Source: an uncultured virus (IMG/VR IMGVR_UViG_2061766007_000905)
Taxonomy: Duplodnaviria; Heunggongvirae; Uroviricota; Caudoviricetes
Virus record (IMG/VR): IMGVR_UViG_2061766007_000905
Strand: one strand, 5' to 3'
Length of the DNA: 20,000 nucleotides
Each line of letters starts with the position of its first letter. The stretch's first letter is position 1. The notes below the pieces were generated by a model that worked only from the letters and a program-made list of their open reading frames with translations, searched no databases and was not told the origin of the DNA. Position numbers and translations under genes: made by a program. Positions 3,116 through 20,000 of this stretch are shown here, piece by piece.

Positions 3116-3457
3116 ATGATTGATTTCAGTAAAAACGATTTCGCAGTAAATAATTTTTGTAAAAACCTCGTAACTTGGAAACGCATCGCGGAAGAAGCCA
3201 AGGGTAACGAAGACAAGATGGCATTATTCATACTTCCAGAACCGATAATCCATGAATATAAAAAACCTGGTTCTGATGGCAGTGAAGTTATTAAAATGAA
3301 ATTTCCGGCTATGACCATGCTCAAGCTTCCTAGCGGCCAGCAGATTTCTATCCTGGTTCGTTTTGACGAAAACGGTAAGCCTTTGTTTGGCGTTTCCGAA
3401 GACATCATGAAATTGTTTGTTGAAGAACATAAACCAGAAGAATCTAATGGAAATTAA
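3116..3457 (+). CDS. hypothetical protein
   Basis: 113 aa ORF, 3 nt after upstream stop. Confidence 0.8.
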   Translation: MIDFSKNDFAVNNFCKNLVTWKRIAEEAKGNEDKMALFILPEPIIHEYKKPGSDGSEVIKMKFPAMTMLKLPSGQQISILVRFDENGKPLFGVSEDIMKLFVEEHKPEESNGN

Positions 3458-3790
3458 ACACGAAATTGTCAAACAGTTGCACCAAGATACAGGTCATGGA
3501 ATGATGGTCTGTAAACAGGCATTTATCAATAATGGTTGCGATTACAATAAGGCCAAAGATTATCTGTTGAGACATAGGTATTCTCGGCCTTTATCTGGTT
3601 GTGTCTATACAGGACCAGACGAACACGATTATGACTTTGAAGCATTTGACTATGACTTCTGGCATACACGTGTTTCTCGAAAAATCGATGTGTATCTGAC
3701 AAAAGACGGAACTATCGATTATAAAAAGTCTCGTTGGCCAGAACGTATTTCTGACATTCGTGAACGCGAAGCCCGCGAACTGAGACGTAT
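3447..3790 (+). CDS. protein with EF-Ts N-terminal (UBA-like) domain; 3' end lost in N gap
   Basis: MEIKHEIVKQLHQDTGHGMMVCKQAFINNGCDYNKAKDYL matches the EF-Ts N-terminal pattern VKELRERTGAGMMDCKKAL-x3-GD; the remainder is not EF-Ts-like. Confidence 0.75.
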
Positions 3791-3861
3791 NNNNNNNNNN
3801 TAAATGAGTTCCTGGAGTTTGTAGGTAGCTTCTGCACAAAATCAAAAACCTTCATTTATAT

Positions 3862-3938
3862 GCTGTATTAGTTCAGTTGGTTTTTAGAACGACTCCTTGC
3901 CATGGAGTAGGTCACCAGTTCGAGCCTGGTATACAGCT
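3862..3938 (+). tRNA. tRNA-Gly(GCC)
   Basis: Acceptor GCTGTAT/ATACAGC, anticodon arm ACTCC-TTGCCAT-GGAGT, T arm ACCAG-TTCGAGC-CTGGT, U73. Confidence 0.92.
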
Positions 3939-3947
3939 CTAAATAAT

Positions 3948-4020
3948 GTGTCCATGGTGTAGTGGTTTAACATCAGTGACCGCCAGTCATTGGTCGCCGG
4001 TTCGAATCCGGCTGGACGTT
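3948..4020 (+). tRNA. tRNA-Gly(GCC), atypical (C33; G1-U72 and U2-G71)
   Basis: Acceptor GTGTCCA/TGGACGT, anticodon arm AGTGA-CCGCCAG-TCATT, T arm GCCGG-TTCGAAT-CCGGC. Confidence 0.82.
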
Positions 4021-4030
4021 CTAAAAATTT

Positions 4031-4103
4031 GCCTCAGTGGCGCAATTGGTAGCGCAGCTGACTCTTAATCAGTGGGTTGAAGGTTCGAGTCCTTCCTGGG
4101 GTA
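4031..4103 (+). tRNA. tRNA-Lys(CTT)
   Basis: Acceptor GCCTCAG/CTGGGGT, anticodon arm GCTGA-CTCTTAA-TCAGT, T arm GAAGG-TTCGAGT-CCTTC. Confidence 0.95.
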
Positions 4104-4113
4104 CGAAAATTAT

Positions 4114-4204
4114 GGGCACGTAGGCTAAAGAGTGAATAACCGGATTACCAGGAGGCTGTACGCAAGGAAGCCACCGCATACGGGTTCGAATCCCGTCGAG
4201 TCCA
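4114..4204 (+). ncRNA. tRNA-like RNA with Ala acceptor identity and no recognisable anticodon arm (mini-tmRNA/TLD-like)
   Basis: Acceptor GGGCACG/CGAGTCC-A (G3-U70, A73), perfect T arm ACGGG-TTCGAAT-CCCGT, internal helix GGAGGCT/AGCCACC; sits in the tRNA array with the same CTAAAA trailer. Confidence 0.7.
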
Positions 4205-4216
4205 CTAAAAATTTTT

Positions 4217-4289
4217 GCCTCTATATGATAATGGCCTAGTCGAGCTGACTCTTAATCAGCGGGTCCTGGTTCGAGTCCAGGTAGTGGCA
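4217..4289 (+). tRNA. tRNA-Lys(CTT), second divergent copy
   Basis: Acceptor GCCTCTA/TAGTGGC (one U-U mismatch), anticodon arm GCTGA-CTCTTAA-TCAGC, T arm CCTGG-TTCGAGT-CCAGG. Confidence 0.88.
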
Positions 4290-4297
4290 CTAAATAT

Positions 4298-4371
4298 GCG
4301 TCATTGGTGTAATGGCTTAACATGGCTGGCTTCCAACCAGCGGACTGTCGGTTCGAGTCCGACATGACGCT
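4298..4371 (+). tRNA. tRNA-Gly(TCC)
   Basis: Acceptor GCGTCAT/ATGACGC, anticodon arm GCTGG-CTTCCAA-CCAGC, T arm GTCGG-TTCGAGT-CCGAC, U73. Confidence 0.95.
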
Positions 4372-4382
4372 CTAAAATCATC

Positions 4383-4453
4383 CCATACGTAGTGTAACGG
4401 CAGCACAACAAACTGTGACTTTGTTAGATTGTGTTCGACTCACAACTTGTGGA
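4383..4453 (+). tRNA. tRNA-His(GTG), atypical (no encoded G-1, A73)
   Basis: Anticodon arm ACAAA-CTGTGAC-TTTGT, T arm TTGTG-TTCGACT-CACAA, acceptor CCATACG/CTTGTGG with one mismatch. Confidence 0.78.
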
Positions 4454-4520: not shown

Positions 4521-4552
4521 GGGTTGACGAAAGTCAATCCATTTTTTATATT
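4521..4552 (+). promoter_or_regulatory. sigma70-type promoter embedded in terminator-like hairpin
   Basis: TTGACG(4524)-N17-TATATT(4547); GGGTTGAC-GAAA-GTCAATCC hairpin followed by T tract. Confidence 0.8.
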
Positions 4553-6470: not shown

Positions 6471-6506
6471 AAAAGGGTTGACATTGGTCAACTCTTTTAT
6501 TATATT
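6471..6506 (+). promoter_or_regulatory. hairpin-embedded sigma70-type promoter/terminator
   Basis: TTGACA(6478)-N17-TATATT(6501); AAAAGGGTTGAC-attg-GTCAACTCTTTT. Confidence 0.85.
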
Positions 6507-7193: not shown

Positions 7194-7228
7194 AAGGGGT
7201 TGACATTCGTCAACCTTTTTATTATATT
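7194..7228 (+). promoter_or_regulatory. hairpin-embedded sigma70-type promoter/terminator
   Basis: TTGACA(7200)-N17-TATATT(7223); GGGGTTGAC-attc-GTCAACCTTTTT. Confidence 0.85.
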
Positions 7229-8431: not shown

Positions 8432-8457
8432 AGCGGACTGAAATAAAATATTTTAGG

Positions 8458-8494
8458 AAAAAGGGTTGACATTTGTCAATTCTTTTTTTATTTT
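8458..8494 (+). promoter_or_regulatory. hairpin-embedded sigma70-type promoter/terminator
   Basis: TTGACA(8466)-N17-TATTTT(8489); AAAAGGGTTGAC-attt-GTCAATTCTTTT. Confidence 0.75.
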
Positions 8495-9152: not shown

Positions 9153-9245
9153 ATGAAATCACAATCGTCACTTCAACAACTTTTGCGCTATAACAAATGG
9201 TATGAAAAGTGGTTGAAAAAGAACAAGAAGATTAATAAGGGTTGA
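9153..9245 (+). CDS. 30 aa basic micropeptide MKSQSSLQQLLRYNKWYEKWLKKNKKINKG
   Basis: Strong TAAGGAG SD, fills the intergenic gap; TGA stop lies within the next -35 box. Confidence 0.6.
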   Translation: MKSQSSLQQLLRYNKWYEKWLKKNKKINKG

Positions 9246-9270
9246 CATGTATCAACCTTTTTTCTATATT
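9237..9270 (+). promoter_or_regulatory. hairpin-embedded sigma70-type promoter/terminator
   Basis: TTGACA(9242)-N17-TATATT(9265); AAGGGTTGA-catgta-TCAACCTTTTTT. Confidence 0.85.
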
Positions 9271-14217: not shown

Positions 14218-15147
14218 TTATTCGAATTTTATATCGTAAGTCGCATCTTCTACTTCTTCAATAGTTAGCTTTTTATTGAATAACTGTTTTAATTTTTCCA
14301 TTAAACCTTTAGCTTCTTCCCTAGATAATGGGCTTGTATTTATGTTTAATGTAATCGTATTAGCTTCTTCTATTGGAGTAGAAAGAATAAATGCTGCATC
14401 ATATTCTTGTGTAAAGAACTTTATACCATAATCTCTAATAGTCTTATTTTTCCATGCTTCATCACGGCCAGGCATACAGTCATACCCGATATGCGTCGCG
14501 ATAAATGATGATTTGCCAGCCTTGGCATTAGAATAGATTGTATAGAATTCATTATCTCCGTGCGGCGTGGACAGTAATATTACTTGCGAATTAACGCTGG
14601 CACTGACTGTTGGGAATACGGACTTCATAAATTGGTCGAGCGATTTTTCTTTACAGTATGCAAATTCGTCAAAAACAATTAAGTCTATATGCTTGCCTAG
14701 AACTGCACTGCTTGAAAACGGCGCATTAAAGATATATGAACCGTTTTCGAATTCGATGCGTCCGTGTTTGCTTTTGGTAATTTTGACTTTAAGAAAATCC
14801 GGAAGATGTTCATATAATTCCATTACTTTTTCAAGTATAGATCTAGACTGGAGTTCTGTATTTGCAAGAATCGCGATAGTTCTTTGCTCGTTGAATAACG
14901 CGAACCACAAAAGATATATTATGGCAATAGTCGTTTTTCCACATTGCCTAGGAGCTACCACAACATGGTTATGCTTCATTTCTTTTCTATTAATCCAGCT
15001 CTTGGCAAACTTACGTAAAAGCTTTGCTTGAAACTGGTAAGGCCGAAATTCAGTAAAACCATCAGCGGTAAGTATTTCGATATATTGTATAAATTTGTTG
15101 ATGTTTTTAGCACACGCTTTACGTATGCTTGATTGTTTGATATTCAT
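14218..15147 (-). CDS. terminase large subunit-like ATPase domain (T4 gp17-like), lacking the C-terminal nuclease domain
   Basis: FRPYQFQ adenine-binding motif, Walker A APRQCGKTT, Walker B IVFDEFAY, motif III LSTPHG, QEY; only ~55 aa follow QEY. Confidence 0.85.
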   Translation of the reverse strand: MNIKQSSIRKACAKNINKFIQYIEILTADGFTEFRPYQFQAKLLRKFAKSWINRKEMKHNHVVVAPRQCGKTTIAIIYLLWFALFNEQRTIAILANTELQSRSILEKVMELYEHLPDFLKVKITKSKHGRIEFENGSYIFNAPFSSSAVLGKHIDLIVFDEFAYCKEKSLDQFMKSVFPTVSASVNSQVILLSTPHGDNEFYTIYSNAKAGKSSFIATHIGYDCMPGRDEAWKNKTIRDYGIKFFTQEYDAAFILSTPIEEANTITLNINTSPLSREEAKGLMEKLKQLFNKKLTIEEVEDATYDIKFE

Positions 15148-15977: not shown

Positions 15978-16156
15978 TGACGTTTGAAGAGTTATATAAT
16001 AAATTGACATATATCAGATGGCTTGGCGAAGTTAAGCCAGATGCTGAAGTGTATTTAACCACTCATGAACATTTTGAACCGCATCATGTTCAATTACGCA
16101 CAGTGACAACGATATCAAAAAATAAAATCGACTTGATGGGTGTCGGCGAAATGTAA
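15977..16156 (+). CDS. small hypothetical protein (59 aa, MTFEELYNKL...)
   Basis: TAATG-coupled ORF ending just before the next hairpin; below ORF-track cutoff. Confidence 0.7.
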   Translation: MTFEELYNKLTYIRWLGEVKPDAEVYLTTHEHFEPHHVQLRTVTTISKNKIDLMGVGEM

Positions 16157-16191
16157 AAGGGATTGACAAAAGTCAATCCTTTTCCTATATT
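16155..16191 (+). promoter_or_regulatory. hairpin-embedded sigma70-type promoter/terminator
   Basis: TTGACA(16163)-N17-TATATT(16186); GGGATTGAC-aaaa-GTCAATCCTTTT. Confidence 0.85.
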
Positions 16192-18933: not shown

Positions 18934-19386
18934 ATGATTATGAATTACACAAAAGACGATTTAATCAACAATGACTATTTAATTAAAGACTGGGATGGCA
19001 AATCCATGGAAGTATTGGCCTGGAATAATGACCAAACGTTTGAGCCATGTAAGTATCAGTTACTCGGCATTCATTATGGTGAAGATGGATTTAAATGGGT
19101 TGTAAAAGTATATTATCAAGATGGTTGGGATAAGGCATATAAGGATTTCGTCGCAAGAGTGCCTACCGACTGGACGCCATATATTGAGCCGAAGCAGATT
19201 CCGTTATTCGAATGCGAAGTTGGCAAGCGTTACAGGGTAAAGGGCGTTTGTGGAATGGATTTTGATAGAATCATGTATTGTGTTCAAGCAGATCCTAATA
19301 AAGGCTATTTGTTCGGAACGACGATGGACGATACGAAACGTATTGGCGACGCCTGGATTAACGAAGTGTATATTTGTGAAAAGTGA
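18934..19386 (+). CDS. hypothetical protein
   Basis: 150 aa ORF, TAAGGA SD (start may be 18940). Confidence 0.8.
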   Translation: MIMNYTKDDLINNDYLIKDWDGKSMEVLAWNNDQTFEPCKYQLLGIHYGEDGFKWVVKVYYQDGWDKAYKDFVARVPTDWTPYIEPKQIPLFECEVGKRYRVKGVCGMDFDRIMYCVQADPNKGYLFGTTMDDTKRIGDAWINEVYICEK

Positions 19387-19391
19387 TAAAA

Positions 19392-19435
19392 AAATTATTT
19401 TTAGGGTTTACAAAACAAAAATAATTTACTATATT
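19392..19435 (+). promoter_or_regulatory. promoter of the leader-peptide/tRNA operon, within an inverted repeat
   Basis: GGG-TTTACA(19407)-N17-TATATT(19430); AAATTATTTTT(19392-19402)/AAAAATAATTT(19417-19427). Confidence 0.75.
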
Positions 19436-19497
19436 TAACAACGTAAAATAACGAAAAACAAGAAAATAAAAACATATATAATATAAAGGTTAAAACA

Positions 19498-19584
19498 ATG
19501 AACGTACTTAGTTTGAACATTCTCCTACTCAGTAGCCTGCTCCTCAGCTGGTTATTGCGTCGTAGTATAGTGGGAACTAGGTAG
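19498..19584 (+). CDS. attenuator leader peptide MNVLSLNILLLSSLLLSWLLRRSIVGTR (28 aa)
   Basis: AAAGGT SD 7 nt before ATG; 10 Leu codons covering all six synonyms, 5 AGY Ser, 1 TGG; TAG 19582-19584. Confidence 0.8.
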   Translation: MNVLSLNILLLSSLLLSWLLRRSIVGTR

Positions 19585-19623
19585 TTCGATTTTTTAGTCG
19601 TATGAAAGTTTAAAGGTTCCCAC
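19570..19623 (+). promoter_or_regulatory. antiterminator helix of the putative attenuator
   Basis: GTGGGAAC (19570-19577) is the exact reverse complement of GTTCCCAC (19616-19623), which overlaps the terminator 5' arm. Confidence 0.75.
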
Positions 19624-19645
19624 AAGTTGGGGACCTTAATTTTTT
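19613..19645 (+). terminator. intrinsic terminator (attenuator) immediately upstream of tRNA-Trp
   Basis: AAGGTTCCCA-caagt-TGGGGACCTT, then AA and TTTTTT (19640-19645). Confidence 0.8.
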
Positions 19646-19649
19646 ATAT

Positions 19650-19721
19650 AGCTCTATGTGGTAATTGGTAACCGAGGTGACTCCAAATCTCCTGTTCCCT
19701 GTTCGAATCGGGGTAGGGCTG
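19650..19721 (+). tRNA. tRNA-Trp(CCA)
   Basis: Acceptor AGCTCTA/TAGGGCT-G, anticodon arm GGTGA-CTCCAAA-TCTCC (one U-U), T arm CCCTG-TTCGAAT-CGGGG. Confidence 0.9.
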
Positions 19722-19725
19722 TAAA

Positions 19726-19815
19726 CGGTCTGTGATTGGAATTGGTATACAGCATCGGCTTAAACCCGGTGGCCGAGATAAGCGCGGATTGGGGGTTCGA
19801 GTCCCTTCAGACCGA
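19726..19815 (+). tRNA. tRNA-Leu(TAA)
   Basis: Acceptor CGGTCTG/CAGACCG-A, anticodon arm ATCGG-CTTAAAC-CCGGT, long variable arm, T arm GGGGG-TTCGAGT-CCCTT. Confidence 0.9.
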
Positions 19816-19823
19816 TAATATAA

Positions 19824-19905
19824 CGGTATGTGATGGAATGTATACATGCGGGCTTGAGAGGTCCGTGCCCGAAAGGGATTGGGAGTGCGAGTCTCCCCGT
19901 ACCGA
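19824..19905 (+). tRNA. tRNA-Leu(GAG), T loop variant TGCGAGT
   Basis: Acceptor CGGTATG/CGTACCG-A, anticodon arm CGGGC-TTGAGAG-GTCCG, variable arm CCC-GAAA-GGG. Confidence 0.88.
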
Positions 19906-19913
19906 TAACATAA

Positions 19914-19997
19914 CGTCAGGTGGAGTAATTGGTAGCCTCGCAAGAATGAGAGTCTTGTGGTAGAAATACCGTGAGGGTTCGAGTCCCTCTCTGACGA
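19914..19997 (+). tRNA. tRNA-Leu(GAG), second divergent copy
   Basis: Acceptor CGTCAGG/TCTGACG-A, anticodon arm CAAGA-ATGAGAG-TCTTG, variable arm GGTA-GAAA-TACC, T arm GAGGG-TTCGAGT-CCCTC. Confidence 0.88.
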
Positions 19998-20000
19998 TAA

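Follow-up and report, generated by a model that had tools for sequence, protein, structure and literature searches.

Leader peptides written in the codons of downstream tRNA genes form attenuator-like units in a family of large cattle-gut phages

Positions 19407-19997 of a 20,000-nucleotide stretch of DNA from an uncultured virus of the Caudoviricetes (IMG/VR record IMGVR_UViG_2061766007_000905; the whole stretch is referred to below as the window) carry a promoter, a short leader open reading frame (ORF), an intrinsic terminator and, directly behind it, a run of tRNA genes. We interpret this unit as a trp-type ribosome-mediated transcription attenuator that gates the tRNA genes, a reading to which we assign a probability of about 0.78. 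Cattle-gut phages of this family, with genomes of ~420 kb, have six units of this kind, every one of them matched to a different block of tRNA genes, and the phage probably makes the gated tRNAs only when ribosomes read the leader codons slowly. Computation establishes the anatomy of the unit, its conservation, the match between leader codons and downstream anticodons together with the co-variation of that match among phages, and the alternative RNA pairings.

Anatomy of the unit

Every element of the unit named by an earlier note on this DNA, which had been made from the letters alone, is present in the sequence. The promoter TTTACA-N17-TATATT, the Shine-Dalgarno (SD) motif AAAGGT and the 28-codon ORF lie where they had been described, and the terminator hairpin with its T6, followed by tRNA-Trp and three tRNA-Leu genes, is recovered by the promoter and terminator listing, by ARAGORN and by Rfam. 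The features, all on the + strand, are as follows.

Before 19407-35 (+): conserved AGGG
19407-19435 (+): sigma-70-like promoter, TTTACA 19407-12, 17-nt spacer, TATATT 19430-35; 10/12 matches
19436-19497 (+): A-rich 5' untranslated region (5'UTR) with a conserved ATATATAATATAAAGG box and SD AAAGGT at 19486-91
19498-19584 (+): leader ORF, from ATG 19498 to TAG 19582-84; 28 sense codons, peptide MNVLSLNILLLSSLLLSWLLRRSIVGTR
19507-14 (+): segment 1, the first cognate codons CTT AGT TT; predicted partner 19574-81, within a hairpin 19500-19587
19570-19578 (+): segment 2, the antiterminator strand, 4-13 nt before the stop codon
19613-19645 (+): intrinsic terminator; segment 3 is the 5' arm 19613-22, the loop is 19623-27, segment 4 is the 3' arm 19628-37, and T6 is 19640-45
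19649-19722 (+): tRNA-Trp(cca), ARAGORN (Rfam start at 19650)
19726-19815 (+): tRNA-Leu(taa), ARAGORN
19824-19905 (+): tRNA-Leu(gag), ARAGORN
19914-19997 (+): tRNA-Leu(gag), ARAGORN; the cluster runs past the end of the window

The terminator hairpin (19613-37) has 10 pairs, five of them G-C, and a loop of 5 nt, and is followed by AATTTTTT. It ranks first among the 31 terminator-like sites in the window, where shuffled sequences are expected to give 10.5 sites. Only 3-4 nt separate the T-run from tRNA-Trp, so that there is no room for a promoter downstream of the terminator, and no + strand promoter-like site is listed between 19436 and 19649. A separate promoter serving the tRNA genes, which the earlier note had named as a finding that would count against its reading, is not seen here.

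No tRNA-like or other RNA family was found over 19436-19648 (Rfam, E up to 10). Strings resembling a D arm and a T loop at 19560-19600 raised the idea that the leader is a decayed tRNA; it was dropped, as neither ARAGORN nor Rfam (E up to 10) calls a tRNA there.

The leader is written in the codons of its own tRNA cluster

The window leader contains 10 Leu codons (all six kinds, with CTC four times), five Ser codons and one Trp codon. The full content of the tRNA cluster was taken from G001, a 30.8-kb virus record that is 96% identical to the window, has an identical leader and carries the order Trp, Leu taa, Leu gag, Leu cag, Leu gag, Ser gct, Leu caa, Leu tag. With cognate codons assigned by standard wobble rules, 16 of the 27 codons that follow the start codon are cognate to the cluster against a background of 10.7% (binomial p=1.2e-9), the background being the 5,353 codons of 36 mechanically listed window ORFs, which limits the weight of this and the following p-values. 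All seven distinct anticodons of the cluster (7/7) are represented by a leader codon. The choice among synonymous codons is also uneven, since CTC makes up 4/10 of the leader's Leu codons against 7.6% in general usage (p=0.005) and all of the Ser codons (5/5, p=0.004) are AGY, the box decoded by Ser(gct).

The match is specific to the reading frame. In the window leader, 16/27 triplets match in frame and 3/27 and 2/27 in the other two frames; over all leaders examined, 295/536 triplets match in frame (55%) as against 66/536 and 77/536 out of frame (12% and 14%). An SD motif (AAGG, GAGG, AGGA or GGAG at -18 to -4) precedes 19/21 leaders, and the ORF is open in 20/21 leaders of all types despite substitutions. 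These observations bear on the suggestion that the region is non-coding, with only the promoter and terminator of importance and the ORF and its codon match arising as by-products of composition or RNA structure. Folding of the ORF region into a strong hairpin (z -3.12) would constrain its sequence, yet a by-product of this kind would not explain a match confined to one frame, nor the retention of SD motifs and of open frames, and we regard this explanation as scarcely credible. Within the leaders, the share of cognate codons is 66% in the body and falls to 21% in the last six codons, which hold the antiterminator strand.

Leader composition tracks tRNA content across phages. In the relative G006, the cluster includes Gln(ctg) and Cys(gca), and the leader has CAG twice together with TGT and TGC; G009, with a Cys tRNA but none for Gln, has two Cys codons in its leader and lacks Gln codons there; the window type encodes neither of these tRNAs, and both kinds of codon are missing from its leader. 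The match holds partly at the level of the codon. Ser codons are AGY with clusters that encode Ser(gct) and TCN with clusters that encode Ser(gga/tga/cga), and for Ile, clusters with Ile(tat) go with ATA and those with Ile(gat) go with ATT or ATC. Leaders of Lys(ttt) clusters use AAA (3/3 in G008; AAA three times and AAG once in G009), and leaders of Lys(ctt) clusters use AAG. Leaders of Arg(tct) clusters use AGR. In G002, the leader of the Arg(acg) cluster has CGN codons throughout its body, and its antiterminator stretch contains two AGR codons. The type-F leader carries ATA, AGA, AAA and CAA, of which ATA and AGA are seldom used in E. coli.

This pattern is of importance for deciding what the leader would sense. 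It might report amino-acid supply by way of charged tRNA, rather than tRNA abundance. Starvation of the host would then raise tRNA output, and the operon's own tRNAs would exert no feedback. A stalled ribosome is blind to the difference between a missing and an uncharged tRNA, the architecture is the textbook one of amino-acid operons, and the match is mostly at the amino-acid level, with an excess of the matching isoacceptor codons that is significant for some leaders only (15/15 against 11.7 expected in the window leader, p=0.004; 18/21 against 16.6 in the type-B leader of G007, p=0.30). Sensing of amino acids needs no match to isoacceptor boxes, yet the split codon boxes of Ser and Ile follow their own cluster, as do those of Lys (mostly) and Arg (mainly). 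Extra tRNA would moreover give no relief of an amino-acid shortage. We therefore consider amino-acid sensing unlikely, although of the alternatives it has the most to be said for it.

Six leader types form a genome-wide system

The window promoter and 5'UTR recur at 76-89% identity before other leaders in the relatives, which include G007, a complete genome of 424,163 bp with terminal repeats, and G008, a record of 411 kb estimated to be 98% complete. Six leader types, A-F, can be distinguished. Their peptides are unrelated and each has a different terminator.

Type A, G007: leader MQLVVTTNVTPVNNPKVTFD; tRNAs Asn, Pro, Thr, Met, Val and others
Type B, G007: leader MTMNVFEHEFFAAERAAAEFAAAAFEAFCSDTVHRIR; tRNAs Glu, Ala, Phe
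Type C, G007: leader MTKFVVDTHDCKTRRDGRGFGKHDKDRYLHRVI; tRNAs Asp, Lys(ctt), Gly, His
Type D: the type of the window unit; tRNAs Trp, Leu, Ser(gct) (G001)
Type E, G007: leader MNLQSYTSSCISICGQQSSIYCMYSIKTGG; tRNAs Tyr, Cys, Met, Ile(gat), Ser(gga, tga, cga), Gln
Type F, G007: leader MMSIRKQIRIRKQGSPWF; tRNAs Arg(tct), Gln(ttg), Lys(ttt), Met, Ile(tat)

ARAGORN supplied the anticodons, and those of its calls that lacked a three-letter anticodon were excluded. The next leader, or a gap of >1,300 nt, was taken to close a cluster, and cluster C of G007 was continued across the record ends. Relaxed ARAGORN runs allowing introns gave many doubtful calls and were excluded from the statistics.

The attenuator reading predicted that leaders before other tRNA clusters would be written in the codons of those clusters, and this holds for each of the five other, unrelated leader types in the related genomes. 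In G007 the own-cluster match of A-F is 0.68, 0.50, 0.47, 0.59, 0.72 and 0.65, with a mean of 0.091 for the other clusters, and the leader of type E covers 8/8 anticodon families. The true pairing of leaders with clusters ranks first among all possible pairings (1/720 in G007, 1/120 in G002, 1/6 in G009 and 1/6 in G008), where the genomes are related, so that these p-values are not independent and the independent units are the six leader types. The units account for nearly all tRNA genes of the complete genome, as one of the six precedes 49/52 of the tRNA-model hits in G007.

Conservation among relatives

The search for relatives of the window unit used as its anchor a tRNA-Leu gene, picked independently of the leader, and gave 10 viral loci. 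All eight loci that hold tRNA-Trp (8/8) have a promoter, an SD, a short ORF and a hairpin with T-run immediately before it; of the other 2/10, one is truncated before Trp and the other is the G001 contig, with the same leader as the window. Over all loci there are nine distinct versions of the unit, and the upstream ORF is retained in 9/9, as the earlier note had proposed should be looked for. Leader positions 2, 3, 7 and 8, which are non-cognate, vary freely among the versions. Changes at the Leu, Ser and Trp positions leave these cognate, and include the synonymous replacements TTG to TTA and CTC to CTT.

A scan of viral contigs for the pattern of the AT-rich 5'UTR, which returned mostly noise, gave at least 12 loci with a short leader ORF and tRNA genes behind it among the 80 loci examined; in one further locus the same leader is cut by the locus end, with no tRNA in view. 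A metagenome scan with the tRNA anchor yielded six loci and no new leader variant.

Alternative pairings and the geometry of the proposed switch

The strand at the end of the leader, GTGGGAAC (19570-77), is exactly complementary to GTTCCCAC (19616-23) in the terminator, as had been described. The duplex of the window has a predicted energy of -16.4 kcal/mol as against -5.6 kcal/mol for 300 dinucleotide shuffles (z -6.25). Nascent RNA was folded with the free part starting 26 nt upstream of the stop codon and running through the terminator loop. The window is then predicted to form a 9-bp helix 19570-78/19615-23 of -15.9 kcal/mol, and this antiterminator appears in the folds only while the 3' arm of the terminator is untranscribed. 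The arrangement is general, in that 6-12 nt of the terminator 5' arm pair with a strand at -23 to +22 from the stop codon in the nascent folds of 20/20 leaders. The duplex of the stop-proximal strand with the 5' arm is better than that of shuffles (300 each) in 15/20 leaders, with z from -2.2 to -6.3. The terminators themselves were found by script for 19/20 leaders and by eye for the type-B leader of G002.

Both helices are kept among the nine versions of the window unit. The terminator is paired in 90/90 cells and has one compensatory pair (C-G to U-A, in two versions), and the antiterminator 19570-77/19616-23 is 95.8% paired, with compensation in the same column (G-C to A-U). The C-to-T change in the terminator 5' arm is thus matched both in the 3' arm and in segment 2. 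The three unpaired antiterminator cells all come from the misaligned row of G009, in which the matching strand lies earlier. The 2:3 complementarity is therefore conserved, compensatory change included; the covariation in the 2:3 and 3:4 helices that the earlier note had suggested seeking does exist, at one compensatory pair each, and is sparse and weak among sequences that come from related phages.

The 1:2 pairing had been placed at 19523-29/19569-75. These strands can pair, with one G-U, and the helix is absent from the predicted folds. Instead, without a ribosome the whole ORF of the window is predicted to form a single hairpin, 19500-19587, of -31.3 kcal/mol (the z of -3.12 given above, with 1/200 shuffles as good), which pairs 19507-14 with 19574-81 and so hides segment 2. 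The helix 19507-14/19574-81 is kept in the RNAalifold consensus of 8/9 versions, with almost no covariation (G009 was unalignable and excluded).

Segment 2 falls inside the footprint of a ribosome at the stop codon, taking the textbook value for the size of the footprint, and the stop codon lies 25-35 nt before the terminator 5' arm in 20/20 leaders. These distances matter for the possibility that the logic is inverted or follows another route, with stalling lowering tRNA output (through Rho and uncoupling, or mRNA decay) or with smooth translation needed for read-through; the phage would in that case produce tRNAs only as long as decoding works. The direction of regulation is deduced here, and the antiterminator is predicted to form without a ribosome in 8/20 leaders, which makes the default state uncertain. 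At a distance of 25-35 nt, though, a translating ribosome cannot directly disrupt the hairpin in the manner of pyrBI, an antiterminator strand within the stop-codon footprint is trp-type geometry, and positive feedback on tRNA supply would be unstable. Inverted logic accordingly seems to us quite improbable.

RNA-library contigs and points against the attenuator reading

Contigs from four of the six RNA-library runs were compared with the window; assembled contigs of this kind prove neither ends, strand, level nor transcription. Two stop at the terminator, one covering 19319-19646 with no difference to the window and the other 19540-19639, the end at 19646 being a weak hint of termination. Two others cross the terminator and reach 19678 and 19682, and no contig from the four runs gives cover past 19723. 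The contigs are compatible with both terminated and read-through RNA.

Several results weigh against the attenuator reading. At equilibrium the terminator has a probability of ~0.95 in every state, whether the ribosome site is blocked or free; the earlier note had expected a switch on folding with and without 19560-95 blocked, and none appears. Since the terminator dominates at equilibrium, the model needs a kinetic assumption, namely that the antiterminator forms first by the order in which the strands are transcribed. The same assumption is usual for classical attenuators. Without a ribosome, segment 2 is hidden by the fold in 12/20 leaders only. Five of the 20 leaders have a 2:3 duplex no better than that of shuffles (type A of G002, G007 and G011, z -0.5 to -0.8; type E of G001 and G002, z -1.1 and -1.9). 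Covariation amounts to one compensatory pair per helix in 2/9 sequences, and column shuffles equal it in 15/500 and 9/500 cases. The own-cluster match is modest for type F of G009 (0.29) and type B of G002 (0.32, ARAGORN calls only), and 4/9 anticodons of cluster A in G007 have no leader codon. The type-E leader of G008 (locus L178, 1299-1394) has an in-frame TAA at codon 9, with the remaining frame, the antiterminator strand and the terminator retained. The second tRNA cluster of the window (Gly/Lys/His, 3862-4453) follows a 128-aa ORF at 3417-3803 and has no leader directly before it. The RNA-library contigs, which both stop at and bridge the terminator, are no proof of ends and may include DNA carry-over. 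The limits on the p-values, set by the codon background and by the relatedness of the genomes, belong with these points.

Some of the same results would fit a translated leader and a real terminator without any sensing, the leader being a small gene before a leaky terminator that fixes read-through at a low level, or the hairpin serving to stabilise or process the 5' end of the tRNA precursor. The terminator is dominant at equilibrium, contigs end at it and pass it, promoter-terminator pairs are common throughout the genome, and the window leader resembles a small hydrophobic peptide. What such an arrangement leaves unexplained is that six unrelated peptides mirror their own tRNA blocks (one of 720 pairings), that leader codons and tRNAs are gained and lost together, that a complement of the terminator 5' arm sits at the stop codon, and that cognate positions are kept while non-cognate ones vary. 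We judge it improbable. As for the interpretation offered by the earlier note, comparison among phages supports an attenuator, and the exact 1:2 helix and the thermodynamic switch that went with it find no support.

Proposed mechanism

Under the attenuator reading, transcription would start from the promoter at 19407-35, and a ribosome would load at the SD and translate the 28-codon leader, in which codons 4-20 are almost all of the kinds decoded by the downstream tRNAs (Leu, Ser-AGY and Trp). If one of these charged tRNAs were scarce, the ribosome would stall, keeping segment 1 open and leaving segment 2 (19570-78) free to pair with the nascent 5' arm at 19615-23. With the antiterminator formed, there would be no terminator, and RNA polymerase would enter tRNA-Trp and the Leu and Ser tRNA genes. 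If decoding were fast, the ribosome would reach the TAG and mask segment 2, the hairpin 19613-37 with T6 would form, and transcription would stop 3-4 nt before the tRNA genes. Without a ribosome the ORF would fold on itself and segment 2 would also be hidden. Leader translation, stalling and read-through are what we infer, as is a natural trigger, for which host tRNA loss, anticodon nucleases, rare host codons and amino-acid shortage may be considered candidates. Because the products of the operon would themselves relieve the stall, the unit would make a direct negative-feedback loop on decoding capacity.

Extended to all six units, the proposal is that the family runs a genome-wide, codon-resolved decoding homeostat, in which each tRNA operon is autoregulated and only those tRNA species that are being lost are replaced; we lean towards it at somewhat better than even odds. 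The losses to be made good could stem from host shut-off, from anticodon nucleases or from the rarity of a tRNA in the host.

Relation to known regulatory systems

The closest models are the leader-peptide attenuators of enterobacterial amino-acid operons, trpL, hisL, leuL and pheL. With these the phage unit has in common a promoter, an SD-led short ORF rich in regulatory codons and a terminator before the first structural gene, as well as mutually exclusive 2:3 and 3:4 pairings, to which a candidate 1:2 pairing may be added, and a stop codon placed so that a terminating ribosome can mask segment 2. It differs in that it would gate tRNAs, not enzymes, with RNA products that relieve the stall, in that its leader has several codon families matched to isoacceptors, and in that one phage genome has six such units. 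Multivalent attenuators exist in the thr leader (Thr/Ile) and the ilvGMEDA and ilvBN leaders (Leu/Val/Ile), where several amino acids are likewise reported by one leader; the phage leaders would report up to eight anticodon families, set by the adjacent tRNA genes and not by a biosynthetic pathway. The pheST attenuator, with its pheM leader, controls phenylalanyl-tRNA synthetase and is thus also a leader-peptide attenuator through which charged tRNA controls a component of the translation apparatus, but its target is a synthetase protein gene, it concerns one amino acid, and it belongs to a cellular genome.

T-box riboswitches share the sensing of tRNA status and the choice between terminator and antiterminator. 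Their genes of control are those for synthetases and amino-acid metabolism, and they sense by direct binding of uncharged tRNA with no translation involved, where in the phage unit a translated ORF would do the sensing. Neither a T-box nor any other cis-regulatory Rfam family was found in 19000-20000 (E up to 10), where the sole row that is not a tRNA is a 17-bit chance match on the opposite strand.

Among phages, the tRNA regions of T5 (NC_005859) have tRNA genes interspersed with promoters, terminators, small ORFs and stable tRNA-like RNAs, as here. Inspection by eye, with no formal test, of 12 small T5 coding sequences and the stretch after P14a showed no codon-matched short leader with a terminator. 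No attenuator or leader peptide for tRNA genes was found in ~8.4 million full texts, a collection that lies largely outside subscription journals. Phage-tRNA papers checked by term match only returned no mention of attenuation, leader, terminator or promoter in the text so covered.

Source, genome context and further features

The sequencing runs that contain the window DNA are cattle-gut metagenomes. A megablast search of 19300-20000 against 50,697 phage records gave no match, a more distant search mode matched tRNA-Leu genes only, and the G001 contig was the only match in a search with the neighbouring proteins. On the minus strand, 14218-15147 holds a terminase-like ORF with 36% identity to terminases of T4-type cyanophages. 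This homologue of the large subunit has only 309 aa and matches part of the profiles (for example positions 263-456 of 807), and the gene may be split or interrupted.

The Gly/Lys/His tRNAs of the window cluster at 3862-4453 correspond to the distal part of the type-C operon in G007 and G002, suggesting that ORFs may have been inserted into this operon in the window phage; the window has masked N stretches, for example near 3792-3801. Within the cluster, the 112 nt between two tRNA-Lys genes (4105-4216) include a tRNA-like acceptor and T arm, are called by neither ARAGORN nor Rfam, and could represent either a decayed tRNA copy or a tRNA that has taken up an insertion. A further intergenic cassette recurs in the window at 4521-4552, 6471-6506, 7194-7228, 8456-8494, 9237-9270 and 16156-16191, between + strand genes. 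It consists of a hairpin with the -35 hexamer TTGACA inside its stem (AAGGGTTGACA....TGTCAACCCTTTT), followed by TATATT, so that a terminator and a promoter appear to be fused in one element.

The relatives show other peculiarities of their tRNA clusters. The in-frame TAA of the G008 type-E leader could mark a broken leader, an assembly error or a codon for a suppressor tRNA. Between the type-E terminator and tRNA-Tyr lies a conserved element of ~75-100 nt with a small hairpin in G001 (L019 12735-12810, minus), G007, G008 and G009, which is absent from G002. In the type-E cluster of G001, long non-coding stretches between tRNA genes (L019 12080-12550 and 10160-10550, minus), with no ORF and no Rfam match at the gathering score, may be stable RNAs or introns. 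Two tRNA-like genes of G002 (L051 6567-6641 and 13977-14047) have a 4-nt loop in place of the anticodon loop, and the second separates the promoter of the type-C leader from its 5'UTR. Also in G002, the first tRNA past the type-A terminator (L051 4681-4995; Asn gtt, by eye) has an anticodon-loop insertion of ~240 nt that is absent from its G007 counterpart (L173 7790-7863); it may be a group I intron, and the Rfam gathering search gave it no name. One of the 3/52 tRNA hits of G007 outside the six units is a lone tRNA-Leu(taa) (L182, 330022-330106, minus) with its own TTGACA promoter and no leader ORF.

Implications

Debate over the reasons for tRNA genes in phages goes back more than 50 years (PMC10264068, in excerpt), and phage tRNAs have been linked to escape from host defences that cut tRNAs (PMC10264068 and PMC11555353, both in excerpt). 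A leader that reads the codons served by the tRNAs behind it would mean that the phage gauges decoding speed for each codon family and makes tRNAs on demand, which would favour explanations of phage tRNAs in terms of supply and demand. A textbook mechanism would thereby gain targets of a new class, namely RNA genes whose products act back on the sensor that controls them, and the units would offer compact, modular parts for sensing the supply of chosen tRNAs. If the homeostat proposal is true, these units would be the first class of attenuator in which the operon's own RNA product is the effector, and would be direct evidence of tRNA supply being a quantity that phages regulate.

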